Below the pieces are notes generated by a model that saw nothing but the letters and a program-made list of their open reading frames with translations, did not search any database and was not told the origin of the DNA. Below are positions 29,271 through 49,362 of a stretch of 49,362 bases of DNA, piece after piece. A program made the translations under genes and the position numbers. Numbering within the stretch: the stretch's first letter is position 1; every line of letters begins with the position of its first letter. Origin of the DNA: an uncultured Bacillota bacterium (lineage in GTDB: Bacteria; Bacillota_I; Bacilli_A; Izemoplasmatales; UBA1188); NCBI GenBank assembly GCA_937907585.1, contig CALCVH010000018.1, positions 1-49,362 of the forward strand, written 5' to 3'.

Positions 29271-29283
29271 AAATAATGATTCT

Positions 29284-30433: not shown

Positions 30434-30478
30434 TAACTTAAAAAGATACTTAAATAACCAATTAGTTGAGTTATTGTT
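30429..30478. promoter_or_regulatory. 10-bp perfect inverted repeat (candidate operator) in the divergent XRE / small-membrane-protein region
   Basis: aacaataact (30429-30438) and agttattgtt (30469-30478) are separated by 30 nt. The left arm overlaps the putative -35 of the regulator gene. Confidence 0.4.
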
Positions 30479-30707
30479 CAATAAAACATACTATAGATTA
30501 TGCTCTATAACACCAATTCTTATATTATCATTATGCAACTTAAATATAATATTTCAAATATTAATATTACAACTCTATTTTTACTATATTTATACCAAAA
30601 AATAATAGATACCTTAAATTCCTAAACATAATTTCATAACAAATAAAAAATAATTATTTAATATTTTTATAATTATTATATAATTAGATATGAAGGAGGA
30701 CTCTTTT

Positions 30708-30932
30708 ATGAAATGGTTTAACTCACAATCTCGTTTAGTTCAAATCTTATTATTATTAATCCCTGGAGTAAACTGGGTTACTGAAGTAATCGTAAGAGTA
30801 ACTGGCGCTATTCAAAAACCTACTTTAACAAATATCTTAGGATTAGTTCTAGGTGTTTTATTTGGTTTTGTTTTTGGTTGGGTAGATTTAGTTTGGGTAT
30901 TATTATTCAAACACTTAATTTTCTGCAAATAG
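30708..30932 (+). CDS. small hypothetical membrane protein (two TM helices)
   Basis: 74 aa beginning MKWFNSQSRLVQILLLLIPGVNWV, with a second helix LGLVLGVLFGFVFGWVDLVWVLLF. An AGGAGG RBS lies 8 nt upstream of the ATG at 30708; the 30690 ATG in the ORF track lies just upstream of that RBS (AGGAGG, 30693-30698). A strong terminator follows. Confidence 0.6.
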   Translation: MKWFNSQSRLVQILLLLIPGVNWVTEVIVRVTGAIQKPTLTNILGLVLGVLFGFVFGWVDLVWVLLFKHLIFCK

Positions 30933-30942
30933 TTAATTGAAT

Positions 30943-30974
30943 AAAGGGCATCCCGAGAGGATGCCCTTTATTTT
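30943..30974 (+). terminator. intrinsic terminator after the small membrane protein gene
   Basis: The 11-bp GC-containing stem aaagggcatcc/ggatgcccttt has loop cgaga and is followed by atttta. Confidence 0.8.
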
Positions 30975-31035
30975 AAACCAACGGAAAATTAGGTTGGTAT
31001 ATTATTTAATTTATCTATAACTATTCGTTATTTTT

Positions 31036-31090
31036 AACAACAATGTTGCAAATGCAACATAAAAAATGTAGCAAATGCATCATTGTTGTT
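31036..31090. repeat. 55-bp imperfect palindrome containing a nested perfect 16-bp palindrome
   Basis: The arms aacaacaatgttgcaaatgcaacat and atgtagcaaatgcatcattgttgtt match at 21 of 25 positions around loop aaaaa. The outer 10 bp are perfect. The nested palindrome tgttgcaAAtgcaaca is at 31044-31059, and gcaaatgca occurs twice. Confidence 0.8.
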
Positions 31091-31213
31091 TTATGACTTA
31101 ATTATATATTTTATTAAGAGGAATCATAAAAGTTTCTGTAATAGTTAATACAATATTATTACTTAATGAATTTTTATAAGAGTTTAAAATGTTGCTATAA
31201 ATAATTAGGAGCT

Positions 31214-31250
31214 GTTAAGAAACTTAGACTTTCTTAACATCCCCTTTTTA
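31214..31250. terminator. hairpin next to the SASA esterase stop (terminator-like; orientation ambiguous)
   Basis: The 9-bp stem gttaagaaa/tttcttaac has loop cttagac. A T-run (ccccttttta) follows on the + strand, and only weak U-richness follows on the - strand. Confidence 0.4.
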
Positions 31251-31257
31251 TTTGAAT

Positions 31258-32169
31258 TTATAATTTTTTATTAATAGCAATTTTTCCAAATAACTTTCCA
31301 AGTAATATCTCACTTTCACTATCAAAGTGTGCAATATCAGGTCCATCTATTGGTTCTTGATCATAGTGAAGTCCGACATCAATTGTGTCAAAATAATAAT
31401 TATAATCATCTTCATTGCTAAACTTTATTTTCGCATTATTTATCTTTTTATACATTGTCCAATAAGGAGAATCACTAATACCAGCATCAATAAAATCAAT
31501 CTCTTTTTGATATGAAGATAAATCATGTCTTAAAAATCCCACAAATTGTTTAGTATTTTTATAATACCTATTAGATAAATTAAAATTAGAATCACTTTCT
31601 CCCTGCATCCAACAGATAGCATCAATTTGGATATCATAATTTTTGCTGATTAAATAATCTAGAGATGTCTTAGTAAAATTGATGGCAGCTTCATATAATT
31701 CTCCACGCTTATATTTACCATTCATCCATTGATAATCAAGGACAGTTCCACCCCATGAATATTTTATGATAAAACATTTCAATCCCTTTTCTTTATAAGT
31801 TAAACCAATTCCTACTTCTGGACCAAAATGTTCTTTTGTAGCACCGTTTCCTAAAGAACATATAACAAATTCATTATTTGATGAATTAGACCCGTTTTCA
31901 CAACAATAATTAATATAAATGTTATCTATTCCATTATTTGTTGATGCATATGTTTCATTATCTTTTTCTTGTAAATATTTAACACTTGAACAACCAGTTG
32001 CATTAGATTGTCCGTATAATAATATCACTCTTACTTTCTCACCATTACCATCACTTAAATTATCATTAATAGAAAAACTAGTAACAGCACCTAATAATTC
32101 TTTCTTTTTACAAGATGATAATGATATTGAACTCAATAATATAATTATAATAAGTAATATTTTCTTCAT
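31258..32169 (-). CDS. SASA-family carbohydrate O-acetylesterase lipoprotein (sialate O-acetylesterase-like)
   Basis: The signal peptide has the lipobox LSSC. Also present are the GQSN block (LLYGQSNATG) and the WMQGESD block characteristic of the SASA/DUF303 esterase family. Confidence 0.8.
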   Translation of the reverse strand: MKKILLIIIILLSSISLSSCKKKELLGAVTSFSINDNLSDGNGEKVRVILLYGQSNATGCSSVKYLQEKDNETYASTNNGIDNIYINYCCENGSNSSNNEFVICSLGNGATKEHFGPEVGIGLTYKEKGLKCFIIKYSWGGTVLDYQWMNGKYKRGELYEAAINFTKTSLDYLISKNYDIQIDAICWMQGESDSNFNLSNRYYKNTKQFVGFLRHDLSSYQKEIDFIDAGISDSPYWTMYKKINNAKIKFSNEDDYNYYFDTIDVGLHYDQEPIDGPDIAHFDSESEILLGKLFGKIAINKKL

Positions 32170-32231
32170 ATAAAATATTCTCCTATATATTTAAATATTA
32201 TCATAATACGTCCACATTCTAATTATCTTTA

Positions 32232-32394
32232 TTATTTTTTATCTTCATATACTTGATATACAAGACGATGTTGAAGATTGATTCTTCTTGAATATACAAA
32301 CGAGTTTTTCATATGAAGGTGGATTTTGAAATGGATTTTCTTCTATTAACTCAAGTTATGCAACAACTTTTTAAAGTAAGTTTGGTTTTTGCTT
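32232..32394 (-). pseudogene. decayed YoeB/Txe-family toxin remnant (frameshifted and 5'-truncated)
   Basis: One minus-strand frame reads ...YSRRINLQHRLVYQVYEDKK*, the YoeB SRRIxxxHRLVY core. A second frame just upstream reads LIEENPFQNPPSYEKLV, matching the NPF...G.P E.L segment. A third frame reads FKKLLHNLS**. No antitoxin ORF is present and the remnant abuts the uxaC stop. Confidence 0.6.
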
Positions 32395-33777
32395 TTATAC
32401 AATAATTTTAAAATAATTAATAGCGTTATAGTAGGAAATATTTTTTATTACCTCTCCAACAAGTTTTATATTGTTGGTTATTTCGTTATTCTCTACCAAA
32501 TTTCCTAAATAATCACATAATATTCTTCTAAAATAATGATGTCTTGAATATGATAAGAACGATCTACTATCAGTTAACATTCCTATAAACGAATCAATGT
32601 GTCCTAATGATGTTAAATCATCTAAATGTTTTTTGATACCATTTTTGTGATCTAAGAACCACCAGCTTGCACCATATTGTATTTTTCCCTTAGCACTGCT
32701 ATCTTGAAAACAACCTAGTAAAGTCAGCATTTCGGAGTTCATTTTAGGGTTCAAATTAAACAAAATAATTTTAGGCAATAGGTTTTCGTTGTTCAATTTA
32801 TCAAATAAACAGCTTAGTTCTTTAATGCTGTTTTCGCTTGAAATGCTATCAAATCCAGTGTCTAATCCAAGTTTATTTAACATTTTTGTATTGTTATTGC
32901 GCATAGCACCTATATGAAGTTCAGTAACAATATTATATTTGGCATATAGTTTTAGCAAATAGTATGTTAAATATCCTTTGAAGATTTTTACTTCGTTAAT
33001 AGATAATTCCTTGTTGTTTCTTCTATCAACGAACACTTTATTTGCTTCTTTTTTAGTTGGTACATTATATACAGCTTCAAGAGCAATATCAGCAGCAACG
33101 CACCCCTTACTAATAAATGATTTTAGCCTATTTTCTATTGCGTTTTCAAGTTCATCTATATCTTTTATGTTCCCTAATTTATCAACATAACTATTGTAGT
33201 TTGAGGCATCTATATTCATTATCTTATCAGCTCTAAAAGCAGGAAATACTCTAAACTTATAGTTTTTCTCTTTAATACAATCAAAAACTTCTAGATTATC
33301 AAAGATTTCATTAGTAGTAAATAGATGTGTAACCTTAGATTCTTCAATTAGTTTAACAGGAGTGATCTCATTTTCTTTTATATATTTATTACATTCATCC
33401 CAAATTTTTGGCGCATTTTCTTCATTAATTTCTAGATTACAATTAAAATAATCTCTTAATTCAATTTGTGACCAATGATACAAAGGATTTCCAAATGCTG
33501 TTGATAACACCTTGCAATAAACTAAAAACTTTTCTTTGTTTGATTTGCTACCAGTAATATATTCTTCATCAATTCCATAATTACGCATTAAACGCCATTT
33601 GTAATGATCGCCTTTAAGCCATATTTCATATATATCTTCAAATTGTTTATTTTCTAGAATTTGATATTCTGAGAGATGACAGTGATAATCAAAGATAGGC
33701 ATATCTTTAGCATAATTAAAATATAACTCATTTGCAGTTTTATTAGAAAGCAAAAAATTATCATTAATGTATGACAT
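32395..33777 (-). CDS. uxaC: glucuronate isomerase (uronate isomerase)
   Basis: 460 aa. The N-terminus NDNFLLSNKTANELYFNYAKDMPIFDYHCHL closely parallels the E. coli UxaC N-terminus (FLL...A..LYH.YAKD.PIFDYHCHL). Confidence 0.93.
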   Translation of the reverse strand: MSYINDNFLLSNKTANELYFNYAKDMPIFDYHCHLSEYQILENKQFEDIYEIWLKGDHYKWRLMRNYGIDEEYITGSKSNKEKFLVYCKVLSTAFGNPLYHWSQIELRDYFNCNLEINEENAPKIWDECNKYIKENEITPVKLIEESKVTHLFTTNEIFDNLEVFDCIKEKNYKFRVFPAFRADKIMNIDASNYNSYVDKLGNIKDIDELENAIENRLKSFISKGCVAADIALEAVYNVPTKKEANKVFVDRRNNKELSINEVKIFKGYLTYYLLKLYAKYNIVTELHIGAMRNNNTKMLNKLGLDTGFDSISSENSIKELSCLFDKLNNENLLPKIILFNLNPKMNSEMLTLLGCFQDSSAKGKIQYGASWWFLDHKNGIKKHLDDLTSLGHIDSFIGMLTDSRSFLSYSRHHYFRRILCDYLGNLVENNEITNNIKLVGEVIKNISYYNAINYFKIIV

Positions 33778-33789
33778 AGTGACCTCTTA

Positions 33790-34407
33790 TTAATTATTTA
33801 TTTCCTTTACTATTTTTCTTGCGCATAAAGATAATTGAGTTATTTCTTCTTTATTTCCTTTTACTAGCCAAGAACCTCCACAAGCAATTATCTTTTTAAA
33901 ACTAAGAAATTCTTTTAAATTATCATTATTTACTCCGCCTGTAGGCATAAATGATACTTGTGGAAATGCAGAACTTAAAGCTTTAATTGTTTTTAATCCG
34001 CCAAATTCTCCTGCAGGAAAGAATTTAACCAAATTAATGTTCTTGCTTAATGCATTCATTATTTCTGTTGGAGTTAATACACCAGGAATATACGGTATCT
34101 CACTTTTTTTGCATTCTTCATATACTTCATCGCTAAAACCAGGAGATACAATAAACTTCGCTCCATAATTAATTGCTTCTATACATTGTTTTTTATCTAT
34201 TATAGTGCCTGCGCCAATAAGCATATTAGGATATTCCAATACAGCTTTTTTTAAACACGCAGGTGCACATTCTGTTCTATAACATATTTCAGCAATAGGA
34301 ACATCTCCATCTATAAGCGCTTGTAGTATTGAATCAACTTCTTTTATGTTATTAAATACAACTACTGGAACTATTCTTATTTCTTTTATTTTTGATATAG
34401 CGTCCAT
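33790..34407 (-). CDS. eda: 2-dehydro-3-deoxy-phosphogluconate (KDPG) aldolase
   Basis: 205 aa with IVPVV, the GAGT block and the Schiff-base Lys region VKFFPA typical of KDPG/KHG aldolases. Confidence 0.88.
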   Translation of the reverse strand: MDAISKIKEIRIVPVVVFNNIKEVDSILQALIDGDVPIAEICYRTECAPACLKKAVLEYPNMLIGAGTIIDKKQCIEAINYGAKFIVSPGFSDEVYEECKKSEIPYIPGVLTPTEIMNALSKNINLVKFFPAGEFGGLKTIKALSSAFPQVSFMPTGGVNNDNLKEFLSFKKIIACGGSWLVKGNKEEITQLSLCARKIVKEINN

Positions 34408-34412
34408 AATAG

Positions 34413-35438
34413 TTACCTCTGAACTCTTCCAGATGCATTACCTTTTACTAAAGATAACACTTCTTCTTCAGTTACTAAATTGAAATCACCAGGAATAGTA
34501 TGTTTAAGCGCGCTTGATGCGACAGCGAATTCTAACGCATCTTTTTGATTACCATTATATTTGATTAATCCATGAATTAATCCAGCAGCGAATGAATCTC
34601 CTCCACCCACTCTATCAACTATAGGCATAATATCATAATGTTTTGACTCATAGAATTCTTTTCCATTATATATTAATGCTTTCCAGCCATTATGAGATGC
34701 GCTATATGATTCTCTTAAAGATGATACTACATATTTAAAGTTATATGTTTCTTTCATTTCTTTAAAGATTTCATAGTACCCACTAGCGCTTGTATCACCT
34801 TTTTCTATATCAGCCTTAGGAGTGAAACCTAGACACAGTTTAGCATCTTCTTCATTTCCAATGCACACATCAACATATTTCATTAATGGTTTCATTATTG
34901 ATTGAGCTTTTTCAGTAGTCCATAATTTCTTTCTAAAGTTTAAATCACATGAAATAATTACATTATGTTTTTTAGCACATTCACAAGCTTTTTTAATTAA
35001 CTCTGCAGCTTTATCAGATATTGCAGGTGTAATACCTGTCCAGTGGAACCAAAAGCATCCATCAAATATCTTATCAAAATCAAAATCACTAGTATCTGCT
35101 AAAGATATCGCAGAATCTTTCCTATCATATATTACCTTTGATGGCCTCATTGATGAACCACTTTCAAGAAAATATATACCCAGTCTATCTCCGCCTCTTG
35201 ATATATATTCAGTATTTACGCCATATCTTCTTAATGCGTTTAAAGCAGATTGACCTATTTCGTTTTTAGGTAGCTTAGTAACATAATATACATCATTACC
35301 ATAATTAGCTAATGATATAGCGACATTAGCTTCTCCTCCACCATAACAAACATCAAACGAATCTGATTGTATAAATCTTTGATTATCAGGTGTAGATAAT
35401 CTTAACATTATCTCACCCATAGTTACTATTTTTGGCAT
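34413..35438 (-). CDS. kdgK: 2-dehydro-3-deoxygluconokinase
   Basis: 341 aa PfkB kinase with N-terminal VTMGEIMLRL, the GGGEANVA di-Gly region and C-terminal GGGDSFAAGLIHG, lying between uxaA and eda. Confidence 0.88.
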   Translation of the reverse strand: MPKIVTMGEIMLRLSTPDNQRFIQSDSFDVCYGGGEANVAISLANYGNDVYYVTKLPKNEIGQSALNALRRYGVNTEYISRGGDRLGIYFLESGSSMRPSKVIYDRKDSAISLADTSDFDFDKIFDGCFWFHWTGITPAISDKAAELIKKACECAKKHNVIISCDLNFRKKLWTTEKAQSIMKPLMKYVDVCIGNEEDAKLCLGFTPKADIEKGDTSASGYYEIFKEMKETYNFKYVVSSLRESYSASHNGWKALIYNGKEFYESKHYDIMPIVDRVGGGDSFAAGLIHGLIKYNGNQKDALEFAVASSALKHTIPGDFNLVTEEEVLSLVKGNASGRVQR

Positions 35439-35449
35439 TTGGGCACCTC

Positions 35450-36889
35450 CTAAAGTGTAACGCCATCTTTGAAGATGGCTATATCATATAATTTATTAAT
35501 TTCATTTTTAGTTTTATATTCACCATTTATAGTTTTTATAACTAAGTCTAATAATTCACTAAATGCACTATCGAATGTTTTATTATCGATAATATCTCCA
35601 GCATTATAATCAATCCATCTTTCTTTTTTATTAAATAACGTAGAATTAGATGAAATCTTAACAGTTGGAACAATAGAACCAAATGGTGTTCCTCTTCCTG
35701 TAGTAAATAAAATCAGTTGAGCATCAGAACAAACAAGATTTGTTGTAGATACAATATCGTTTCCAGGACCATTTAAAAGATTCAAGCCTTTGTTTACTAC
35801 TTTTTGGTTTTCTTTTAATACATCAACTATTTCGCTATATCCACCTTTTTGAATACAACCAAGTGATTTATCTTCTAGTGTAGTAATTCCGCCCTCTTTG
35901 TTTCCTGGAGATGGGTTCTCATAACATACTTGATTATGATTTTTATAATATGTTTTAAAATTGTTAATCAAATCAACCGTTTTATTATAGATAGATTCAT
36001 CCTTACACCTATTCATAAGGAGTTGTTCAGCACCGAACATCTCAGGAACTTCTGTAAGAAGTGATGATGCGTTATTTTTAACAAAGTAATCAGATATTAT
36101 TCCTACAAGTGGGTTAGCGGTAATACCTGATAATCCATCAGAACCACCACACTTTAATCCTAAAGTAATAGATGAAAGTGGCACTTCTGCTCTTTTATCT
36201 TTAACCATCTCTTGATAAATCTCATTTAATAATTCTAATGAGTCTTCAATCTCGTCTTTAGAGTTTTGAAGAATGATAGATTTAATTCTTTTTTTATCAT
36301 AATCTTTTAAAGATTTTAAGAATGGTTCAAGTTGATTGTTTTCACAACCTAGTGATACTATCAAGACACCTCCAAAGTTAGGGTGCTTTGCGATGCTTAA
36401 TAGCGTATCTTTAGTAAACAACATGTCATCACCAATCTGTGAACAGCCATATGGATGAGTTAACGCAATAACATCATCTATACCATCAAGATTGTTTCTT
36501 TTAATAAACTCATCTTTAATTCTATTAACAGTACTATTGATACAGCCAACAAGAGGTAGTATTAATAGGTTATTTCTAATGCCGTATTTGTTGTTTGATC
36601 GTTTATAGACCATTACTTTCTTGTTATCGAAAGAGAATTTATTCTCTATTACTGCTTTTTCATAGTGATATACAGGTTCTTCATCTAATAAGGTCTTAAT
36701 ATTATGAGTATGAACGTGCTCGTTCTTTTTAATATCTTTAGTTGCGACTCCTATTGGATAACCATATTTATAAATCTTTTCACCTGCTTTAATATCTATT
36801 GATGCTATCTTATGTCCGAAAGGAACGATATCGTTTGTTAAGGCTATTAAAACATTATCTTTTTCATTTAATTTTATATACTTATTCAT
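35450..36889 (-). CDS. uxaA: altronate dehydratase
   Basis: The N-terminal SAF domain reads MNKYIKLNEKDNVLIAL (compare E. coli MQYIKIHALDNVAVAL), followed by the large UxaA/GarD C-terminal domain. The ATG at 36889 has a GAGGGG RBS and overlaps uxaB by 8 nt. The ORF-track start at 36904 is a TTG. Confidence 0.92.
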   Translation of the reverse strand: MNKYIKLNEKDNVLIALTNDIVPFGHKIASIDIKAGEKIYKYGYPIGVATKDIKKNEHVHTHNIKTLLDEEPVYHYEKAVIENKFSFDNKKVMVYKRSNNKYGIRNNLLILPLVGCINSTVNRIKDEFIKRNNLDGIDDVIALTHPYGCSQIGDDMLFTKDTLLSIAKHPNFGGVLIVSLGCENNQLEPFLKSLKDYDKKRIKSIILQNSKDEIEDSLELLNEIYQEMVKDKRAEVPLSSITLGLKCGGSDGLSGITANPLVGIISDYFVKNNASSLLTEVPEMFGAEQLLMNRCKDESIYNKTVDLINNFKTYYKNHNQVCYENPSPGNKEGGITTLEDKSLGCIQKGGYSEIVDVLKENQKVVNKGLNLLNGPGNDIVSTTNLVCSDAQLILFTTGRGTPFGSIVPTVKISSNSTLFNKKERWIDYNAGDIIDNKTFDSAFSELLDLVIKTINGEYKTKNEINKLYDIAIFKDGVTL

Positions 36890-38321
36890 AATGCCCCTCA
36901 ACAAAATCAGCTAAAGCTTTCTTCATTCCTAATTCTTTTATTCTATTATAGTAATCTAATACATATTCATAGAAACCATTTAACTTTGTTAAATCGGTTC
37001 CAAAGAAATCTGTATTGCTTAAGAATTTATAGACATAATCGCTATCGTTCTTAATTGAGTTTATATATTCTAAGTATTGAGCATTATCGTTTAGCTTTAT
37101 ATCATCTTCTCCTCTTTTACCTTGATAGAAAATGGCTAAAGAGGCGAGGCTAAACGCTATCACCTTAGAATATGTTCCGTTTAATTTATTATAATCAAAT
37201 AGAGTTGGTAGAACTCTTTCTTTATATTTAGATATAGAGTTTAATGCGATAGACATTAGTTCATGTCTAACGAATGGATTCAGATATCTTTCAAATACGC
37301 TATTCGCAAAGCTAGTTAAATCATCTTTATCTAAATCTATAGTAGGTATTACAACATCATATACAAATTTCTTAGCGTATTCACCTACATATTTATCTAA
37401 TATAGATTCTCTAACTGTATCAATACCATATAGATATGATACAGGAACCATTAATGTATGACATCCGTTAAGGATTCTTACTTTTCTTTCTTTATATGGC
37501 TTAATTGATTCTACGTATTTAGCATTTAATCCAATTTTATGTATAGGGAATATATTCTTTATATGTTCATCGTTTTCTAATACCCATAGGTGGAATATTT
37601 CGCCAACTACTACGTTTTCATCAATGTAGCCTAGTTCATTATATGTTTCGTTGATATCACCTTTAGGATATCCAGGAACAATCCTATCAACTAGTGTAGA
37701 TGAAAAATGACAACTATTATTGATCCAATCTATAAAATCATTATCATAACCTTTTAATTCTGATAACTTTAATAAGACTTCTTTTAATTTCTTTGCGTTA
37801 TTATCTATTAGCTCGCAACAAATAAAAGATAGTCCCTTACTAACGTCGTGGTTAAAATAATCATATCTCGTCTTAAGAAGAGAAAGTACTTTTGAAGGAA
37901 ATGATTTAGGTGTTTTATCAAAATCTAAATCATTTTCATCTAACACTATACCTGCTTCAGTTGTATTAGATATAATTAATTCTAAATCTTCTTTTTTAGC
38001 GTAATCTAGGTATCTATCATATTCTGTATATGGATTGATAAAATCGCTCAAAACATCAATAACTTCATGATTTCTAATGACCTCGTTGTTTTCAATGCCT
38101 TGAAGATATAAAGTATATAATCCATCTTGTTCTTTCAAATCTTGAACTCTTCCACTTGGAAGTGGCTGAACAACACATACGTGACTATCAATAAGTCCTT
38201 GATCATTCATCTTTTTTATAAACCAATCAACAAACGCTCTTAGAAAATTTCCTTCGCCAAATTGAAGTATTTTAATATTTTTTGTTTTTTTATTAATAAT
38301 TTTTGATGTTAGCTTTTCCAT
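36882..38321 (-). CDS. uxaB: tagaturonate reductase (altronate oxidoreductase)
   Basis: 479 aa long-chain mannitol-dehydrogenase family protein. The N-terminal ILQFGEGNFLRAFVDWF matches the UxaB signature IQFGEGNFLRAFVDW. Confidence 0.88.
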   Translation of the reverse strand: MEKLTSKIINKKTKNIKILQFGEGNFLRAFVDWFIKKMNDQGLIDSHVCVVQPLPSGRVQDLKEQDGLYTLYLQGIENNEVIRNHEVIDVLSDFINPYTEYDRYLDYAKKEDLELIISNTTEAGIVLDENDLDFDKTPKSFPSKVLSLLKTRYDYFNHDVSKGLSFICCELIDNNAKKLKEVLLKLSELKGYDNDFIDWINNSCHFSSTLVDRIVPGYPKGDINETYNELGYIDENVVVGEIFHLWVLENDEHIKNIFPIHKIGLNAKYVESIKPYKERKVRILNGCHTLMVPVSYLYGIDTVRESILDKYVGEYAKKFVYDVVIPTIDLDKDDLTSFANSVFERYLNPFVRHELMSIALNSISKYKERVLPTLFDYNKLNGTYSKVIAFSLASLAIFYQGKRGEDDIKLNDNAQYLEYINSIKNDSDYVYKFLSNTDFFGTDLTKLNGFYEYVLDYYNRIKELGMKKALADFVEGHYE

Positions 38322-40151: not shown

Positions 40152-40769
40152 CTACTTTAAATTGTCTATTATTTGATTACATATTTGGTTCATGCCTAGA
40201 GCTGTTGGATGGCCATTGATTTTATCTATATCATGCAATACAACATAATCTATACCAAATTTATTTGATGATTCAATCATACAATTTACTATTTCCTCTT
40301 TTAAATCGGTGTTGATTACACATAGTATTTTAGATTTAGGTAAATCTTCTCTTAGATTGTATAGTAAATATGAAATCGCAGGAAAAACATTATATAAATC
40401 ATCTTCAGTCCAATCACTGAATTTTATTTCACCTAATGGTGCATCAGCCCAACTATCATTAATTCCGCCAAACACTATTGCTAAATCAATATCATTATTA
40501 AATAATCCATTGTTCTTTTGTTTTTTATATCTACAAATAAAAGATGATGTTTTAGAACAGTCGTAATTATTGTATCCGGTATAACAGATTGTAGAACCTG
40601 ACCAACTATTATTATGAACAAGGTTATATCCGGTTTTACTAATAAATAGCTTCCACCACGTCTTATCTACTTCATCAACATCTAAGCTTGGATAATATTT
40701 AGTATGGCCTTCAGGTACATAATCTTTAAATGTGGAATAACTATCTCCAAATATTATAAAATTTTTCAT
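40152..40769 (-). CDS. SGNH/GDSL-family hydrolase (cytoplasmic esterase)
   Basis: 205 aa with block I IIFGDSYS, block III GGINDS and block V NGHPT. No signal peptide. It overlaps the upstream gene by 4 nt. Confidence 0.75.
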   Translation of the reverse strand: MKNFIIFGDSYSTFKDYVPEGHTKYYPSLDVDEVDKTWWKLFISKTGYNLVHNNSWSGSTICYTGYNNYDCSKTSSFICRYKKQKNNGLFNNDIDLAIVFGGINDSWADAPLGEIKFSDWTEDDLYNVFPAISYLLYNLREDLPKSKILCVINTDLKEEIVNCMIESSNKFGIDYVVLHDIDKINGHPTALGMNQICNQIIDNLK

Positions 40770-41709: not shown

Positions 41710-42726
41710 TTATTCTTTGAACATTTCATTTATTGCTGCCCAAGTAATATCAGGACACCAATAGTGTCCTTTTGGTGTTACAACTAATTTAGAATTAAGA
41801 GGCGATCCTGCTTTTTCATATATCTTTTTTACAGTATCGTATCCCCTATAAACACCTTCTATTGGGAAAATAATATCTTCTTTACCCGCTATAACTATTA
41901 GTTTTCTTGGGGCGATTAAGCATGCTAAATCTTGCATATCAAAATATCTATATGCTGAAGGTATAAAATTACATGCGCAGTGATATATATCTAAAATAGA
42001 TTCTTTATATGGACAAAAAGAGCAAGCAGGTGCACATAGTTTAATTCTTTCGTCATAACAAGCAGAATAATAACTAGCAGTACCTCCACCAGAACTACCT
42101 GTAATCATGATATTATCTAAATCACATTCTTTGAAATTGGATAAAGCATCTATCGCTCTTGATACATCCCATACTCTTTCACCAATTAAAGTTCTGCCAA
42201 GTAAAAATGCAGCTTGTGCAGCAAATGAGCACATCTTGCCCCATCTTCTTTTTTCTTTTTGAGGTTTGTTTTCACCCATAGCTCTTTGTTCAATCGCAAG
42301 AGCGATATATCCGTTTTCAACAGCTTGTAAAGCGAAAGCTACTCTTGGTAAATCCTCTTTATCTTCTTCAAATTTAACTATTCCTAAAGAGTTATGAAAG
42401 CCAGTCGAATGTCCTTGAAGTGTAATTACGACTGGATATTTTTCTTTTTTAGTGTTTGGAATCAATAGATAACAAGGCACAATAGCGCCAACTTCACTTT
42501 CAAAAGTAAATCTAATCTGTTTATGATTATCTTTCTCTTCAATAGATTCTATATCGATATTTAAAGGACAGGTATTTTGTTTAATTAAATCTATTCCTGT
42601 TAATTCACAAAACTTCTTTCTTAATGTTTCTTTCTGAATAGATAAATCTTTGTTTTCATCAAAACTATAAAGAGGTTTCATCTCTTCAGCTATAATATCA
42701 TGACATTTATCACCATTAACTATCAT
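41710..42726 (-). CDS. alpha/beta hydrolase (putative cytoplasmic carbohydrate esterase, acetyl-xylan-esterase / dienelactone-hydrolase-like)
   Basis: 338 aa with the nucleophile elbow ITGSSGGGT and a C-terminal GHYW region. No signal peptide. The family assignment is approximate. Confidence 0.7.
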   Translation of the reverse strand: MIVNGDKCHDIIAEEMKPLYSFDENKDLSIQKETLRKKFCELTGIDLIKQNTCPLNIDIESIEEKDNHKQIRFTFESEVGAIVPCYLLIPNTKKEKYPVVITLQGHSTGFHNSLGIVKFEEDKEDLPRVAFALQAVENGYIALAIEQRAMGENKPQKEKRRWGKMCSFAAQAAFLLGRTLIGERVWDVSRAIDALSNFKECDLDNIMITGSSGGGTASYYSACYDERIKLCAPACSFCPYKESILDIYHCACNFIPSAYRYFDMQDLACLIAPRKLIVIAGKEDIIFPIEGVYRGYDTVKKIYEKAGSPLNSKLVVTPKGHYWCPDITWAAINEMFKE

Positions 42727-42742: not shown

Positions 42743-43585
42743 TTAATCCCTAATATCTTTTAAAGTTGGAATACCTTCAAGTACATAATTATGTGTAACT
42801 TTATAGGTTGCAGCTTTAAGAGCGAATTTAATCGCATCAGTTAAGCTATAATCTAATTCTAAAGCGTAACATAAAGCACCGTTAAATACATCTCCAGCAC
42901 CAGTAGTGTTTATAACATCTACTTTTTTAGTCTTAAAATCAGTTGTTTTTCCATTTTCAATTAATCTAGCACCATCTTCACCTAAAGTAATAGCTACTCT
43001 AGCTGGATTAATTAATTTAAACAAGTTCTCATATTCAACTTCGTTAGGAGTAAATAACCATACTTGTTTTAAAAAATCTAATGGGTAGTTTCTTACGGGT
43101 GATGGATCGAATATGATTTTATTATCCTCACCACATAATTCTTTTACTTTTAATAATACTTCATCAGATAACTCGCCAGATAATAATATATAATCGGAAG
43201 ACTTAATCTCTTCTTCAAATGTAGTTATATCAGCTGTATTAATCTTTACATTATTATCAATATATACAGTAACACAGTTATCTCCGTTTGAATCATGCAT
43301 TATAAGACCATAATCAGTCTTACCTTCTTTTTCAATACAAGTAGCGTTTAGGTTTTCTTTTTTAAAGAAATCCTTACACGTTCTAGCGTAATCATCATTT
43401 CCTATTGAAACCAAGAAGGATACATTACCACCTAATCTTTTGATTGCGGTCGATGCATTAGCGCCTTTTCCGCCTGGTTCAATATAAATATTATTCGCTT
43501 TTATGCTTTCACTTGCTTTAGGAAACTTATCACAATATAAAAATACAGATTGTCCGCATATACCTATAACCGCAGTCTTTTTCAT
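42743..43585 (-). CDS. PfkB/ribokinase-family carbohydrate kinase
   Basis: 280 aa with the ribokinase-like PGGKGANAS motif and C-terminal TTGAGDVFNGAL. Substrate unknown. Confidence 0.88.
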   Translation of the reverse strand: MKKTAVIGICGQSVFLYCDKFPKASESIKANNIYIEPGGKGANASTAIKRLGGNVSFLVSIGNDDYARTCKDFFKKENLNATCIEKEGKTDYGLIMHDSNGDNCVTVYIDNNVKINTADITTFEEEIKSSDYILLSGELSDEVLLKVKELCGEDNKIIFDPSPVRNYPLDFLKQVWLFTPNEVEYENLFKLINPARVAITLGEDGARLIENGKTTDFKTKKVDVINTTGAGDVFNGALCYALELDYSLTDAIKFALKAATYKVTHNYVLEGIPTLKDIRD

Positions 43586-43586
43586 A

Positions 43587-44309
43587 TTATAAATGCTTAA
43601 TCCTTTCTTTATATTTTGATACTAACTCGTTATTCGTTTCTTTATTTTTAGATAAGTTACCACTTTCAAAATAATCTACATTAATATTATTCTTTTTACA
43701 TAATAAAATTGCTTGATAGATACAACTTTGTATTAGAAATGTAGATATAGATGTAGATACTGGTACAGCCTTAGAATCATTATCAAGCTCTAATACAGCA
43801 TCTCCCTTAGGTACACAGTTATCAATAAAAATATCGCAAAAATCTTTAAGTATTTTTCCTGATGAATGTCTTGATTTCTCGTTAAAATATGATGATGAAC
43901 CCATGCCGATTACTTTTAAGTCTTTATCCTTAAAGCTCTTCGCAACTTCAATAGGCACGCCATTAATACCTGATGTAGAAAATACAAATAATATATCTTT
44001 ATCTGTAACGTTATATTCATCAAATATTTTAGGTGCGTTAGCTTCGTCTTTTTCAAGTTTGCTACTATTAGACGCGCTAATATGCAACATTAATTCAGGA
44101 ACAAAAATTGGTTGAACATTTGATAGTCCACCAGCTCGATAGAAACAATCTTGAGCAATTAATAGAGAGTGTCCGCATCCAAACATATAGATAATTCCAT
44201 CGTTTTTAATGCATTCAGCAATAAGTTTAGCAGCTTCATTAACTGCGTCTTTATTTACTCTATCACTTTGTTTAATTAGGTTACTTAAAGTTTTTGCGTA
44301 TTTTGTCAT
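43587..44309 (-). CDS. SIS-domain protein, UPF0309-like (paralog B)
   Basis: 240 aa with IYMFGCGHSLLIAQDCFYRAGGL and FSTSGINGVPIE, a SIS phosphosugar-binding fold. It overlaps paralog A by 4 nt. Confidence 0.8.
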   Translation of the reverse strand: MTKYAKTLSNLIKQSDRVNKDAVNEAAKLIAECIKNDGIIYMFGCGHSLLIAQDCFYRAGGLSNVQPIFVPELMLHISASNSSKLEKDEANAPKIFDEYNVTDKDILFVFSTSGINGVPIEVAKSFKDKDLKVIGMGSSSYFNEKSRHSSGKILKDFCDIFIDNCVPKGDAVLELDNDSKAVPVSTSISTFLIQSCIYQAILLCKKNNINVDYFESGNLSKNKETNNELVSKYKERIKHL

Positions 44310-45055
44310 AACATCTTTACACGTTTAGTATATTTATCAAGTAATTCTTTGTTCTTTTCATCTCCAAGAGGAGTGTTGGCGCTTGTCCAACAAGGAGGAA
44401 CGATTCCTCTTTTTACACATTCTTCAACAGTAAATATTTCAAGTAAGTGAGCAATATAAAAATCAACAATATTTGATACTGGAGCAATTGATGTATCAAA
44501 ACCTTCAATATTTATTACTGCATCACCAACAGGGTTATAATCATCAATACAAATGTCTGCATAATCAAATAGGTTCTTTTTATTCGGATGGCGAATGAAA
44601 TGATCTTTTGACATTTCGTTTTGCCAGATACTACTTGATACTGCGATTATTTTAACGCCTCTTTTTTTAGCTTCTTGAGCCGCATCTATGGTTGCTGGGT
44701 TGATTCCGATATTATGGAATATAATCAGTAAATCATCTTTTTGAAGATTGTAGTATTTTATTATCGCAGCTCCATAATTAACTGTTCTTTCAAATTCTAA
44801 ATATTTTAAAGCTTGATTAAATACAGATAATCCAGTCTCCATTAATGGATTAATGTTTGCGAGACCACCAGCTCTAAAGAACATTTCACCCATACATAGT
44901 GTTGTGTGTCCACCGCCACCATAAACATTAATAAGCTTATCGCTTTCAATCGCATCAGCCATTAAAGATGCGGCTTTTTTAATGTTTTCTGTCTGTTCTT
45001 TGTTAACTTTTTCAATATTATCTTTAATAAAATCCCAGTATTTTTGTTCGTACAT
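44306..45055 (-). CDS. SIS-domain protein, UPF0309-like (paralog A)
   Basis: 249 aa with INVYGGGGHTTLCMGEMFFRAGGL and FHNIGINPATID. It has the same layout as the downstream paralog. Confidence 0.8.
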   Translation of the reverse strand: MYEQKYWDFIKDNIEKVNKEQTENIKKAASLMADAIESDKLINVYGGGGHTTLCMGEMFFRAGGLANINPLMETGLSVFNQALKYLEFERTVNYGAAIIKYYNLQKDDLLIIFHNIGINPATIDAAQEAKKRGVKIIAVSSSIWQNEMSKDHFIRHPNKKNLFDYADICIDDYNPVGDAVINIEGFDTSIAPVSNIVDFYIAHLLEIFTVEECVKRGIVPPCWTSANTPLGDEKNKELLDKYTKRVKML

Positions 45056-45069: not shown

Positions 45070-47133
45070 TTAAAGTTTAGATTTCCACTCTGCAATAACA
45101 TCATAGATATTAGAGAATGTTCTAAGTCCGCCTAATTCTCCGTTTTTGCATATTCTTTCAAATTCATCTATTTTTGAAGTGAGTTCTTCTTTAGAGAAAT
45201 AACTTGAGTATAATGTAATCTCAACATATCTAAAGAATATTGATTCATATTCTAATCTCTTAGTTAAAGTTTCTTTCGTTTCAGTAGATAATTCTTGAGA
45301 ATTATTTATTTTGCTTATTGCATTTTTAAAATCGTCGTTTATTCCTTCAACAAATGAGAGTGGATAATTCTTGATTGTTGTAGTAGCTGAAGTCGCTGCG
45401 CCGTTATATCCCATTGGCTGCATATAATTAAGATAGTGGAATGTTATTTGCTCGATATAATTTTTGATTGTATCTGCACCATCCTTATAATATACATCAA
45501 TGAATTCATCCATAAGTTTCTTATAATCTTGATGAATATCCCATAGAAGTCTTGATCTAACCCACATATCCATATAGTAGAATGATAGGTTAGTAGATGA
45601 ACCATTGCCCTGATTATAGATATCGATATATCCATAATCATAATATGATTTTAAGTTTTCATATCCAGCAGTCCAGTTAGGGAATGGTTGATATGTTTCA
45701 CCGAAGTTGATAGTGTAATCCCATACTGCAAAATGATTAGCGAGTGTCTTCCATCCATTCATTTGGATATTTGATCTTGCATTATGTTTTTCATCAAGTA
45801 ATGGGAATAAGTATCCCTCAAGCATAGGAGCGTATCTTATAACGATATTATCTCTTAATACTAAAGATGGATCTAATGGTTTATATTCTCCATTTTCATA
45901 GCTAACAGGAGGTTGAACTACAGTTAAGTATGCGAAGATTGTAAAGTATATAGTTCTTTCAGGACAGTTCTTGTCTTGCCACTCTTTAACAACGTCCGCA
46001 ACTTGATTCGCAAATCTAATCACAAGTCCTGTTCTTGTGTATTTAGATATATCTTCCTTACATCTTTCACAATCACAGAAATATTCATTATCACTCATTC
46101 CAAGTTGGAATAGTGTTTTATCTGTTTCAATTGAAACATAATCCTTTATTAAGTTATAACAGAAAGTCCAGAATAGTCCGTGGGTTCCATCACTAAATGT
46201 TTGGTCTGTAGTTAGTGATCCATCCTCATTTAATAATCCACTTGTATATGGGTCGTATTCACCCTTATCATATAAAGCTTTTGTGAAACAAAGTTGTGAT
46301 CTAGTGGCGTTAGTATCTCCACCAGGCCCATAGTACCAATCTGGGTGTTCAGCTCCATATATTTTTGATGGACATATCTGTTCTTCCATAGATTGATCGT
46401 ATAAAGAACTCCACCACGTACCTTCACCATAAGTTTCTTCCCATTTAGAATAGATAGAACCATTAAGGTAGTACTTCATTGTAGTAGATGGATCTGTCTT
46501 TGTAGTTAGGTTATAAATATCTCTTTCTGGGAAATCAGGCCAATCTTCATAATCATAGTTTAGCAGCTTAATATCATCAGATTTATCAATCTTGATTTCA
46601 TCTGGTGCATAATACATGTAATTGCAATTCTTTTCAAAGAATCTATATACGCCATATATTAAACCAGTATTATCACCCGCAAGAATGAGCAATCCATCTT
46701 CATAGGATTTGATTTTAAAGCCGTTTCTATTGTATGAATTAGCACCATCAATATAACCTGATAATTCTGCGAGTTTAGTATTTCCGATAGAAATATATTT
46801 TGTTGTGTCCTCTAAATCAGATGTTGATACAATTTCGAGATTAGTTCCGCAAACAGAATCTAATAACATATTGAATTCAAGTGCTGCATAGTTTTCTGCT
46901 TTGGAAGCATCTTCTCTTAATAGAATCTTGTATTCACTTGTCTTGTTGTTTACAAGATATGTATCACTATCAGATATCTTTTGAGTTCTTCCATAATAGA
47001 TATCACTTTTTGTAGAATCATTACCATTATTATTATTTTCTGTAGTGTTTCTATTTTTGCAGGACGATAAAAAGAGAGCTAATGAAAGACAAAGTATGCA
47101 ATTAATAAATATTAATAATTTCTTTTTCATCAT
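45070..47133 (-). CDS. lipoprotein, DUF4838-like putative glycoside hydrolase
   Basis: The signal peptide has the lipobox LSSC. The protein is large and rich in W and Y, with a CDCERCKE (CxCxxC) motif and overall layout that I recall from DUF4838/GH20-like proteins. The family call is from memory and was not searched. Confidence 0.6.
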   Translation of the reverse strand: MMKKKLLIFINCILCLSLALFLSSCKNRNTTENNNNGNDSTKSDIYYGRTQKISDSDTYLVNNKTSEYKILLREDASKAENYAALEFNMLLDSVCGTNLEIVSTSDLEDTTKYISIGNTKLAELSGYIDGANSYNRNGFKIKSYEDGLLILAGDNTGLIYGVYRFFEKNCNYMYYAPDEIKIDKSDDIKLLNYDYEDWPDFPERDIYNLTTKTDPSTTMKYYLNGSIYSKWEETYGEGTWWSSLYDQSMEEQICPSKIYGAEHPDWYYGPGGDTNATRSQLCFTKALYDKGEYDPYTSGLLNEDGSLTTDQTFSDGTHGLFWTFCYNLIKDYVSIETDKTLFQLGMSDNEYFCDCERCKEDISKYTRTGLVIRFANQVADVVKEWQDKNCPERTIYFTIFAYLTVVQPPVSYENGEYKPLDPSLVLRDNIVIRYAPMLEGYLFPLLDEKHNARSNIQMNGWKTLANHFAVWDYTINFGETYQPFPNWTAGYENLKSYYDYGYIDIYNQGNGSSTNLSFYYMDMWVRSRLLWDIHQDYKKLMDEFIDVYYKDGADTIKNYIEQITFHYLNYMQPMGYNGAATSATTTIKNYPLSFVEGINDDFKNAISKINNSQELSTETKETLTKRLEYESIFFRYVEITLYSSYFSKEELTSKIDEFERICKNGELGGLRTFSNIYDVIAEWKSKL

Positions 47134-47143: not shown

Positions 47144-49362
47144 TTATGACACCGTTACAGCAAATGATAACAGGCTATAGTTACCACAAGAATCAACTGT
47201 ATAGTAATAGATAGTCCATATTCCTGTTACATCAGGTGAAAAACTATCAGAATCTATTATCACAAATGAACCAGTAGGTCTTTGAGCGTAGATGCTATAA
47301 GTTAAGTTTTGATCAACGTTATCACTAACCTTAGCAGAAGGTAAGGAAATAGATTCACCTAATTTTATAGATTTAGTGACAGTACCATTAACCATAATAG
47401 TTGGTGAAATATTGTCATAACAATATATATTAAAACTTAATGATGTTTCGTTACTGAATTTATCTATCGCTTTAAATATAACGTTATATTTACCAAATTC
47501 TGTTATTTCAAATGAACAATAACCATCTTTACCTGTTGATAATACTTTACCGTTATATTCAACTCTAACAGTAGCGCTACAGTATTTATCAAATAGATCA
47601 AATGAATCATAATTGAATGATACTTCATCACCTATCTTGTACAGCCTATTTAAATCAGTATAGATGATTGTTGGTTCAGTAATGTCATCAGCGTTATATG
47701 AGAAATCTTGGTTTCCACAGAACTTAGAAAATTGTATTGTTGTTTCATTTATTGAATTATATAAACTTATATTTACATATGCTTTTCCGCTTTCAAAGCC
47801 ATCAAACTCATCACCATTATCATAATTAGTTATCTTAAGGACAGCGTTAAGTCCATCATAAACCCATCCATTTGAGTAAACAATATCAAACGGAATCTTT
47901 GCTGTGCTTATAGCGCCTGCTATAACTACAGATGAATCTTGATTAGATAAAACGCTTGAATCAGCTTTGTTCTTTAAGATATTTAATGTAACTGAATGAT
48001 TCTTATTTACACTATCAGTTAATGTAATAACTAGCTTTGGAGCGTTTTCGTTTGCGTTAATTGCTTTAAAGTCGAATTCAACCATGCTAGTTAATACAGG
48101 GTTTAAGAAATAGAATGAACTATCTCCGTTAGATGCAGTAAACACCATTTCTCCATCTAGATTATCTATAGACATATTATCTGTAACAAAGAAATCTCTA
48201 ATGAACTTACATTCTTTTGCGTAGAATGAATATTCTTTAGATACAGATGTATTATTTAGAATGTTGCTTGCGATTATTTTAAATTTATATTCTCCCTCTT
48301 CTTTTGGAATATAATCTTTTGTTATTTCTTTATATACTCCGTTTGATGGTTCTTTTATCGCATAAGTTACTTTGGCATTTACACCATCGCTGAACGATGA
48401 ATAATCGATAGCGCTAAATTCTGGTATTACTAGTTTATTTCCTACTTCTACTACTTCATCTACTAAAGGGAAATAAACGACAGGCGCTTCATCTATATAT
48501 GTAAGGATAGGATAATCAAAATAGATAGGTGTATCATAATAATCCGTAACTGTATATCTTAAAGTGTATACACCTTGTTTTAAAGGGATGAAATAATTAT
48601 CGCTAGATATTTCAACATTCTTATCGTTATATAGAACACTTACACTATATTTCTTGTTGATAGAGCCGCCATAAACAATCGCTTTAGGAATGCTTATACG
48701 TTCACCAACTTTAGCGTTTGAATCTAGCTCATCTAAAAGGCTTAGGTGTAAATCATTAATTCCTTTTCTAATTTCTACATTTCTAACGTTTTTACCAACG
48801 TTACCAGATCTGTCTTTTGCAGATGCGACAATTGAATAGGTTCCATATCTATCTGGTGTAAACTTATTATCAACTATGCTTATTTCTTTTTGATTAGTTT
48901 CGCCATAATTATAGAATACTTTATAGTTGATATCATAGATAAAGCCATCTAGTAAATCATAAGCGAAACACTCAGTAATAGGCATTGGTCTATTTATTTC
49001 ACCATAGAGATTATCTTCATCTAAAACAGTTTTTTCAATAACTAGTGGTGGGTTATAATCTATAACTCTACCTTTAGTGAAATCCATACCGTTATATGAT
49101 AGAATCGCAACTTGCGCAGTTCTACCGCTGACGATATTGATAAATCTGATGCTGACCTCTAGTTCGGTTGAATCAAAACCATCCCAAGGAATATCAGTTC
49201 CTATCATGTATCTTCCATCATCTAAATCACGAACAAGAACTCTTTTTCCTCTATCACTTCCTGTAACTGAAAACACTTGTTTTGTTTCATAGTCTAAAGC
49301 TAAGAAACCACCTAAAGGAAGTTTGTTGTCGAAGCCTTGTGGAACACCATCATAATCAGAAA
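47144..49362 (-). CDS. large surface/secreted protein with tandem Ig-like (beta-sandwich) repeats (5' end outside the window)
   Basis: The frame stays open upstream of the GTG at 49276 to the window edge (...SDYDGVPQGFDNKLPLGGFLALDYETKQVFSVTG...). At least four units of about 85-100 aa fit the pattern G(D/E)x(I/V)x(I/L)Pxxxxx(D)...Y(x)V...F(I/T)Pxx.G.Y...Y...D..GN, for example the final unit PTIMVNGT...SFAVTVS. Confidence 0.7.
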   Translation of the reverse strand, partial: SDYDGVPQGFDNKLPLGGFLALDYETKQVFSVTGSDRGKRVLVRDLDDGRYMIGTDIPWDGFDSTELEVSIRFINIVSGRTAQVAILSYNGMDFTKGRVIDYNPPLVIEKTVLDEDNLYGEINRPMPITECFAYDLLDGFIYDINYKVFYNYGETNQKEISIVDNKFTPDRYGTYSIVASAKDRSGNVGKNVRNVEIRKGINDLHLSLLDELDSNAKVGERISIPKAIVYGGSINKKYSVSVLYNDKNVEISSDNYFIPLKQGVYTLRYTVTDYYDTPIYFDYPILTYIDEAPVVYFPLVDEVVEVGNKLVIPEFSAIDYSSFSDGVNAKVTYAIKEPSNGVYKEITKDYIPKEEGEYKFKIIASNILNNTSVSKEYSFYAKECKFIRDFFVTDNMSIDNLDGEMVFTASNGDSSFYFLNPVLTSMVEFDFKAINANENAPKLVITLTDSVNKNHSVTLNILKNKADSSVLSNQDSSVVIAGAISTAKIPFDIVYSNGWVYDGLNAVLKITNYDNGDEFDGFESGKAYVNISLYNSINETTIQFSKFCGNQDFSYNADDITEPTIIYTDLNRLYKIGDEVSFNYDSFDLFDKYCSATVRVEYNGKVLSTGKDGYCSFEITEFGKYNVIFKAIDKFSNETSLSFNIYCYDNISPTIMVNGTVTKSIKLGESISLPSAKVSDNVDQNLTYSIYAQRPTGSFVIIDSDSFSPDVTGIWTIYYYTVDSCGNYSLLSFAVTVS

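Follow-up and report, generated by a model that had tools for sequence, protein, structure and literature searches.

Two NagS-type SIS paralogs and a re-tooled ribokinase form a conserved gene module, most likely for amino sugars, in uncultured Clostridia

What is the chemistry encoded by two adjacent, paralogous SIS domain proteins that are followed directly by a sugar kinase? The question is raised by three minus-strand genes in the 49,362-nucleotide stretch of DNA that was analysed here as a whole and is called the window (contig CALCVH010000018.1 of assembly GCA_937907585.1, positions 1 to 49,362, from an uncultured Bacillota bacterium). Our results suggest that the trio most likely forms the central part of a module by which uncultured Clostridia of gut and rumen process amino sugars in the cytoplasm. 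The three genes are:

44306..45055, minus strand: SIS-A, a UPF0309/NagS-type single-SIS protein of 249 amino acids
43587..44309, minus strand: SIS-B, a UPF0309/NagS-type single-SIS protein of 240 amino acids, overlapping SIS-A by 4 nucleotides
42743..43585, minus strand: PfkB kinase, a ribokinase-like sugar kinase of 280 amino acids, 1 nucleotide after SIS-B

In the window DNA the sequence AGGAG-N9-ATG lies ahead of SIS-A, an ATGA stop/start overlap joins SIS-A to SIS-B, TAAtATG joins SIS-B to the kinase, and a ribosome-binding site is also present ahead of the gene after the kinase. Matches resembling promoters or terminators were no more frequent here than the shuffle expectation. The two SIS proteins are 31% identical to each other. 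An earlier note made from this sequence had given the same coordinates, overlap, gap and SIS motifs, all of which we found in the DNA.

Is the trio a functional unit or an accident of the window? When a single genome of each species was scanned, 442 stretches encoding SIS-A relatives were found, and the best 80 of these, at least 74% identical to SIS-A, are all from uncultured gut or rumen Clostridia, under the taxon labels Christensenellaceae, Borkfalkiaceae, Acutalibacteraceae, Oscillospiraceae, Scatosoma and Congzhengia. Open reading frames were called and clustered in 85 loci plus the window; 80 of the loci were chosen via SIS-A, so that the linkage statistics are conditioned on this protein, while the contexts chosen via SIS-B (n = 3) comprise two canonical clusters and one solo SIS protein of another lineage. 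Genes of the SIS-A type, the SIS-B type and the kinase co-recur in most of the 85 other loci, in several gene orders, and their grouping is far beyond chance. Because the trio persists through repeated rearrangement, a shared function is strongly argued, and the module supposed in the earlier note is genuine.

The two SIS proteins can be placed by family and by fold. Both match Pfam SIS_2 end to end (SIS-A 121.6 bits, SIS-B 140.3 bits) and both cover nearly the whole of the NCBIfam profile NF002805/PRK02947 for UPF0309, with 223.6 bits for SIS-A and 249.4 bits for SIS-B against a curated cutoff of 135 bits. The best matches of an AlphaFold2 model of SIS-A (pLDDT 82) are NagS of Streptomyces (9eol_A, template modelling (TM) score 0.82, E = 1.5e-17) and BH3325 of Bacillus halodurans (3cvj, TM 0.83), with GmhA and MurQ next (E ~1e-6) and MurR also among the fold matches. 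The fold of SIS-B was assigned from sequence only, by its matches to 3cvj (E = 3.6e-38) and 9eol (E = 2.2e-34), and that of SIS-A from both model and sequence. SIS-A has about 2,550 database relatives, the best 120 of them at least 75% identical, and UPF0309 as a whole forms 843 clusters at 50% identity (E <= 1e-10). BH3325 is the closest solved structure to SIS-B by sequence and carries the full signature HSRTESSRDN; it differs in being an uncharacterised structural-genomics protein of the single-copy canonical type, not a serine-less one. Literature searches on UPF0309, on BH3325/3CVJ, and on SIS domain with PfkB, MocA and N-acetylglucosamine found nothing useful, and a search on chromogen I and N-acetylglucosamine 6-phosphate (GlcNAc-6P) dehydratase found nothing beyond the NagS paper and a preprint of it.

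That paper bears directly on what the earlier note had said of the family, namely that UPF0309 has no assigned reaction. The statement is outdated: SCO4393, now NagS (PDB 9eol, 9f7o, 9f7v), is a GlcNAc-6P 2,3-dehydratase (PLoS Biol 2025, PMC12680351). From GlcNAc-6P, and more weakly from N-acetylmannosamine 6-phosphate, NagS produces the 2,3-unsaturated furanose 6P-chromogen I, whose five-membered ring is described as ribose-like and 2,3-dideoxy-2,3-unsaturated (PMC12680351). It is a homodimer with two active sites at the subunit interface, in which the substrate is sandwiched; catalysis requires H53, E94 and D179 together with R64 of the partner subunit, S91 and the partner's N228 are important, loss of S91 lowers kcat/Km 40-fold, and the phosphate is held by S54, S119 and S121, although single S119A or S121A mutants remain partly active (PMC12680351). 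Its potent inhibitor is 6-phosphogluconate, and MurQ forms a sister SIS clade to the NagS type (PMC12680351). Homodimers are the norm in the UPF0309 family. Homologs that are 26-36% identical, from Clostridium, Paenibacillus and Acidothermus, are inactive or nearly so on GlcNAc-6P, and true NagS is limited to Streptomycetaceae (PMC12680351). Because homologs of about 30% identity are inactive on GlcNAc-6P, SIS-A and SIS-B need not share the activity of NagS.

On these comparisons SIS-A and SIS-B are classed as UPF0309 family members and not as NagS orthologs. Orthology was rejected because NagS orthologs are at least 58.7% identical and confined to Streptomycetaceae (PMC12680351), whereas the window proteins are 28.0% (SIS-A) and 33.8% (SIS-B) identical to S. 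coelicolor NagS and have their relatives in uncultured Clostridia. Synteny of the NagS type, with the iron regulator gene dmdR1 in divergent orientation, was likewise rejected: the locus has a DUF4838 glycosidase, the PfkB kinase and an esterase, and no DtxR-type regulator. MurQ identity was also dismissed, as NF003915 gave 15.4 bits for SIS-A against a cutoff of 168 and no match for SIS-B.

Do the two paralogs do the same thing? The NagS residues were mapped onto 79 SIS-A-type and 61 SIS-B-type sequences. H53, R64, E94, D179 and N228 (NagS numbering) are invariant in 79/79 sequences of the SIS-A type and in 60-61 of the 61 of the SIS-B type, a single one of which departs at the R64 position; in the window SIS-A these residues are H50, R61, E89, D178 and N227. 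As far as retained catalytic residues can tell, both paralogs look functional, as the earlier note had assumed, and both appear to keep the NagS machinery for opening a 2-acetamido aldose and for C2/C3 elimination. SIS-B of the window has the full NagS signature (H47, S48, R58, S83, E86, S111, S113, D170, N218), and its clade retains S54, S91, S119 and S121. In the SIS-A clade these positions are invariantly changed (S54T, S91L, S119H, S121I and also R123I, in 79/79), the window residues being T51, L86, H114, I116 and I118. Nearly all of 150 UPF0309 representatives (50% clustering) keep the signature HSR[S/T]ESSxDN, and SIS-A shares a long branch with five further representatives that have lost the serines, beside a UPF0309-NagA fusion protein. 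To judge from these residues, SIS-A and SIS-B are not equivalent.

The nearest serine-less relative of SIS-A from outside the clade is P0381, with 45% identity (L096:303-3214). It is followed by a gene of the AP_endonuc_2 sugar isomerase/epimerase fold and an amidohydrolase gene, on a 3.3-kb contig that is too short to reveal a canonical partner.

The altered pocket raises the possibility that SIS-A is not an enzyme at all but a sugar-binding or regulatory subunit, a sensor, or a chaperone for SIS-B or for f2 (a companion protein described below), SIS-B and the kinase being the only enzymes. SIS domains are ligand sensors in the RpiR/MurR regulators, MurR is among the fold matches, a GntR-UPF0309 fusion (P0322) exists, and SIS-A lacks the S91 whose loss costs NagS so much of its efficiency; the very high conservation of SIS-A could also reflect multiple protein contacts. 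All four residues essential in NagS, and N228, are nevertheless invariant in all 79 SIS-A-type sequences, and SIS-A has no DNA-binding domain. We regard a non-catalytic SIS-A as quite improbable.

The paralogs also differ in conservation and in linkage. Across 33 complete loci the mean pairwise identity is 90% for f2, 84% for SIS-A, 74% for f4, 59% for SIS-B, 56% for the kinase and 54% for f3, where f2, f3 and f4 are companion proteins encoded in many of the loci. The kinase gene stands directly after SIS-B in 57 loci, and SIS-A occurs with f2 without a nearby SIS-B or kinase in 10 of the 42 loci that have enough flank. By rate and linkage the units are thus f2 with SIS-A, SIS-B with the kinase, and f3 with f4. 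The commonest layout has a divergent AraC regulator and then f2, SIS-B, kinase, SIS-A, f3 and f4. Other layouts are SIS-A, f3, f4, SIS-B, kinase, on contigs with an f2 protein named from Ruthenibacterium; SIS-A, then GH20, GH113 and AAC(3)-like acetyltransferase genes, then SIS-B and kinase; and f2, SIS-A, f3, f4 with neither SIS-B nor kinase nearby. The order of the window, SIS-A, SIS-B, kinase, is found in a minority of eight loci (the window, L005-L009, L022 and L027). The tandem pair on which the earlier note built does exist, with its 4-nucleotide overlap, but the common order is SIS-B, kinase, SIS-A.

These results bear on the chief rival to our own reading, the proposal of the earlier note that the tandem paralogs form a heteromeric enzyme. 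In this model SIS-A and SIS-B are an obligate heterodimer acting on the product of the kinase; the phosphate-competent site would consist of the SIS-B pocket with R61 and N227 of SIS-A, and the remodelled site, regulatory or for a second ligand, of the SIS-A pocket with R58 and N218 of SIS-B. The NagS site does lie at the dimer interface with R64 and N228 supplied by the partner, and both residues are invariant in SIS-A and SIS-B. The two proteins are translationally coupled in the window and co-occur in about three quarters of the judged loci, and single-chain UPF0309-UPF0309 fusions exist (P0267 and P0303), the halves of P0303 having degenerated unequally; the genes around P0267, a tandem fusion, gave no clue. 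However, the adjacency of SIS-A and SIS-B is rare, and kinase, f3-f4 or GH20-GH113-acetyltransferase genes separate them in most layouts. Start/stop overlaps are equally common at other junctions (kinase/SIS-A 42/51, f2/SIS-B 32/36), so the overlap between SIS-A and SIS-B is no specific evidence for a heteromer. The strongly differing rates, the loci with SIS-A and f2 alone, and the invariance of SIS-A's own pocket, which would be needless in a mere scaffold, also speak against a complex that is obligate. The composite site and the coupling in the window keep the heteromer in play, and we consider it rather unlikely.

What does the kinase contribute? It matches Pfam PfkB with 149.6 bits, and its best equivalog model is the ribokinase TIGR02152, with 194.4 bits against a cutoff of 299.65 (NF008353: 158.3 against 341); the nearest structures are ribokinases. 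It resembles RbsK of the E. coli type, its best-matching subfamily, in the conserved catalytic base, anion hole and GGKGAN motif. On the catalytic and ATP side K43, N46, E143, N187 and the GAGD motif with D255 (E. coli RbsK numbering) are invariant across 65 clade members, with K40, N43, E138, N181 and D232 as the counterparts in the window kinase. On the sugar side it differs from RbsK in every member: N14 is replaced by Gly (G11 in the window) and D16 by Ser (S13) in 65/65 sequences. We take N14 and D16 to be the ligands of the ribose 2'- and 3'-hydroxyls in the E. coli structure. The kinase is thus, as its sequence reads, ribokinase-like with an altered sugar specificity.

The earlier note had allowed that its proposal would fall if the kinase were a plain ribokinase or a duplicate of the 2-keto-3-deoxygluconate kinase KdgK. 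It is neither. A plain ribokinase was rejected on the scores below cutoff and the replacement of N14 and D16, and a KdgK duplicate on scores of 23 bits (NF052444) and 36 bits (NF040938) against cutoffs of 400 and on the separate KdgK-like gene of the window, which is only 27% identical over 86 residues. An identity with FrlD was rejected as well (NF007321, 32.9 bits against a cutoff of 247). The same scores tell against the ordinary annotation of the trio as two phosphoheptose or phosphosugar isomerases and a plain ribokinase or KdgK duplicate. The depositors of 3cvj did name it a "putative phosphoheptose isomerase" and ribokinase is the best model for the kinase, but the GmhA models NF001628 and NF010546 gave the SIS proteins just 16.4-23.6 bits against cutoffs of 265-276, and GmhA identity was rejected. 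The ordinary annotation is highly improbable.

The companion proteins, whose genes lie outside the window, give some indication of the pathway:

L022:6035-7066, L091:6973-8004 and L093:6973-8004: f2, a cytoplasmic protein of 343 amino acids, usually encoded ahead of SIS-B or SIS-A
L048:10770-11465 and equivalents: f3, a protein of about 231 amino acids assigned to no family

No sequence match to f2 was found in Pfam, NCBIfam or the PDB, and all sources list it as "hypothetical". Its AlphaFold2 model (pLDDT 84) is a glycoside-hydrolase-like (beta/alpha)8 TIM barrel, nearest to structures of GH42, Cwp19, GH164 and the poly-N-acetylglucosamine-binding C-terminal domain of PgaB, and the motifs WDEPH and CxCxxC are invariant. 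From the model, f2 is a candidate for an unclassified glycoside hydrolase (GH) family. f4 is a Gfo/Idh/MocA oxidoreductase. f3 has no significant sequence match in PDB, Pfam or NCBIfam and aligns weakly to the C-terminal half of f4 (hhalign probability 53%, E = 1.4e-4). One possibility is that f3 pairs with f4 as a subunit devoid of the NAD-binding domain, in which case the cluster would hold two asymmetric paralog pairs.

Which sugar is processed? Elsewhere in UPF0309 the domain is fused to NanE (291 bits, cutoff 189), to a genuine NagA (TIGR00221, 342 bits, cutoff 226) and to a BadF-type ATPase whose sole kinase match, a weak one, is GlcNAc kinase, as well as to GNAT, to a ceramidase-like amidase and, in P0322, to a GntR helix-turn-helix domain. 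The fusion set comprises P0267, P0303, P0330, P0348, P0340, P0293, P0351, P0386, P0380, P0291, P0378 and P0322. Near the module itself GH20-like genes occur in 22 loci, GH113 and AAC(3)-like N-acetyltransferase genes are also neighbours, and the Ruthenibacterium-type contigs carry a MurQ-like gene, a BadF-type kinase, GH20, GH89/NAGLU and a GlcNAc 2-epimerase-family gene beside the module. A DUF4838 protein is a neighbour of the module in the window and in seven other loci. DUF4838 is the catalytic domain of GH163, which cleaves GlcNAc-beta1,2-Man, and of GH185, a 6-sulfo-beta-GlcNAcase (PMC10570127). The fusions and the conserved neighbours are two independent lines that both favour an N-acetyl amino sugar, and the module most likely processes such a sugar and not a uronate conjugate.

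A modified sugar or a sugar acid had been proposed as substrate in the earlier note from the position of the genes, since the window also contains:

32395-38321, minus strand: hexuronate operon with the complete pathway, encoding UxaC, 2-keto-3-deoxy-6-phosphogluconate aldolase (eda), a KdgK-like PfkB kinase (34413-35438), UxaA and UxaB

In its fuller form this reading has a uronate or sugar-acid conjugate feeding uxaCAB/kdgK/eda, with a C6 carboxylate taking the place of the phosphate in the SIS-A pocket. The complete pathway is encoded by the strand of the module at a distance of 4-10 kb downstream, the adjoining esterase is weakly like a glucuronoyl-esterase and an acetyl-xylan-esterase, GH28 genes are near the module in five loci, inhibition of NagS by 6-phosphogluconate shows that sugar acids can fit the fold, and His114, which stands for a Ser in SIS-A, could bind a carboxylate. 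The adjacency is, however, not conserved: the UxaA, UxaB, KdgK and Eda families are found in 0/85 other loci and UxaC in one, and the family-wide fusions and most frequent neighbours are amino-sugar enzymes. A uronate substrate has, in our estimate, a small probability.

Taken in order, the evidence leads us to favour two sequential NagS-type enzymes, SIS-A and SIS-B, on either side of the kinase, a reading to which we tentatively give a probability of about 0.45. Surface beta-N-acetylhexosaminidase-like enzymes (DUF4838 in the window, GH20 or GH89 in other loci) would, together with an importer, bring in a fragment containing an N-acetylhexosamine. SIS-A would turn a free sugar of the N-acetylhexosamine type, unphosphorylated or differently substituted at C6, into a 2,3-unsaturated furanose resembling chromogen I before the kinase acts; the kinase would phosphorylate this furanose, and SIS-B would convert the phosphorylated product for entry to central metabolism. 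We infer which step follows which, what the substrate is and that the enzymes act as homodimers. SIS-B is placed on the phosphorylated product because it has kept the 6-phosphate site and always accompanies the kinase, and SIS-A most likely acts on a sugar that is unphosphorylated or carries a different substituent at C6, because its serines are replaced, it is under stronger constraint and it travels with f2. A furanose step fits this order, the product of NagS being a 2,3-unsaturated ring and the kinase lacking the ligands of a 2',3'-diol. In a more specific form of this scheme, a phosphate-independent SIS-A acts on free N-acetylhexosamine released by f2 or by the surface DUF4838 or GH20 enzymes, and the re-tooled ribokinase and then SIS-B follow, in a previously unknown route independent of NagA and NagB. 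So specific a route is unlikely. In Streptomyces this chemistry is known only as a side-path of toxicity or signalling; if the route is real, amino-sugar catabolism independent of NagA and NagB would be widespread in uncultured gut and rumen Clostridia.

Several points weigh against the sequential scheme. The sole related Clostridium protein that has been assayed had negligible GlcNAc-6P dehydratase activity (PMC12680351). The loss of the serines in SIS-A is no proof of lost phosphate binding, because single S119A and S121A mutants of NagS stay partly active, and His114 of SIS-A could itself bind an anion. The two-subunit active site and the UPF0309-UPF0309 fusions fit a heterodimer equally well. 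Finally, a tblastn search of the window found none of f2, f3, f4 or the other companion families, and f2, f3 and f4 are likewise absent within view from L007 and L008, two loci that share synteny with the window, so that SIS-A either operates there without its usual partners or has them elsewhere in the genome.

In the window the trio is flanked by the following genes:

45070..47133, minus strand: predicted DUF4838 lipoprotein, immediately upstream of SIS-A, with a GH163/GH185-type beta-GlcNAc-cleaving fold
41710..42726, minus strand: alpha/beta-hydrolase esterase, immediately downstream of the kinase; Abhydrolase_7 with a distant likeness to acetyl-xylan-esterases
47144..49362, minus strand: gene of a large repeat-rich surface protein, cut by the end of the window and syntenic with L007 and L008

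The lipoprotein matches PF16126 with 139.6 bits and has a weak GH67N/GH20b-like N-terminal domain; its N-terminus, MMKKKLLIFINCILCLSLALFLSSC, reads directly as a signal peptide with a lipobox. The esterase matches PF12715 with 64.7 bits, GCE_fung with 47 and AXE1 with 35, its closest PDB entry is the putative acetyl xylan esterase 3nuz (E = 1.6e-8), and its family is present in four other loci (L007, L008, L010 and L022). The surface protein gene probably belongs to the glycan-utilisation locus as well. In a tblastn search with its 948-residue homolog from L007, window positions 49345-47147 corresponded to residues 214-948, and the listed open reading frame, with its start at 49276, is too short.

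L007 and L008 contain genes for surface proteins, DUF4838, SIS-A, SIS-B, the kinase, two further proteins, the esterase, YitT, a GDSL-like esterase, a flavin reductase and a transporter of the major facilitator superfamily. An ABC sugar-binding protein and two permeases appear by eye to precede the surface protein, and both loci look like a Gram-positive glycan-utilisation locus. Two of their genes have no counterpart in the window: one for 721 amino acids between kinase and esterase (L007:12312-14477, with an equivalent in L008), GH36-like by eye, and one for 280 amino acids just past the esterase (L007:15503-16345, with an equivalent in L008), GH43-like by eye.

The window also contains an unusual cluster of minus-strand esterases, at 25394-27172 (Lipase_3 with a Listeria-Bacteroides repeat), 27207-27785 (GDSL_2), 31258-32169 (SASA-type acetylesterase), 40152-40769 (GDSL-like) and 41710-42726 (the Abhydrolase_7 esterase above), which suggests a heavily O-acylated glycan substrate. 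Positions 24001-34000 have a GC content of 0.26-0.28, against 0.29-0.34 elsewhere in the window; a regulator with HTH_3 and TPR (29315-30481) is encoded in this low-GC part, as is, on the opposite strand, an AAA_14/DUF4143 ATPase (27957-29270).

How does the module compare with known systems? It is of a known kind, a kinase plus a SIS enzyme as in MurK/MurQ and NagS, and the logic of the MurK/MurQ type that the earlier note had invoked would, by analogy, be the right neighbourhood of ideas. In MurK/MurQ or AnmK/MurQ the kinase makes a 6-phospho 2-acetamido sugar and the SIS enzyme carries out C2 deprotonation and C3 elimination. MurQ has another SIS architecture than SIS-A and SIS-B, the window kinase is PfkB/ribokinase-like and not of the BadF/ROK or AnmK type, and the substrate would be other than that of MurQ because a separate MurQ-like gene sits in the same locus in the Ruthenibacterium type. 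FrlD/FrlB and AgaS also combine a PfkB-family kinase with a SIS-family enzyme on an amino-sugar derivative; FrlB and AgaS are, however, GlmS-like double-SIS proteins, whereas the window proteins are single SIS_2 domains. The closest likeness in family, key residues and fold is to NagS, with SIS-B sharing also the phosphate serines and S91. NagS is nonetheless a single protein with a signalling or toxicity role in Streptomycetes, while the window has two paralogs, one of them without the phosphate serines, whose genes are coupled to that of a PfkB kinase within a locus for glycan catabolism.

The locus thus holds a conserved, biochemically uncharacterised module, most likely for amino sugars, in which two NagS-type paralogs are combined with a re-tooled ribokinase, and the finding is more general than could be known from the window itself. 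NagS is the only characterised member of UPF0309, with an activity explicitly shown not to reach distant homologs, and about 440 loci in species-representative genomes encode relatives, the core proteins of the module being unusually conserved. The prediction is a sharp one, with one paralog that has a phosphate site and one that has none flanking a kinase without ribose-diol ligands, and Ruthenibacterium sp. CLA-JM-H11 is a cultured carrier of the module. Solving its chemistry would give a function to thousands of genes now called "sugar isomerase domain-containing" or "hypothetical", would probably define a new glycoside-hydrolase-like family (f2), and would show how abundant unculturable Clostridia associated with fibre and mucin use amino-sugar glycans.

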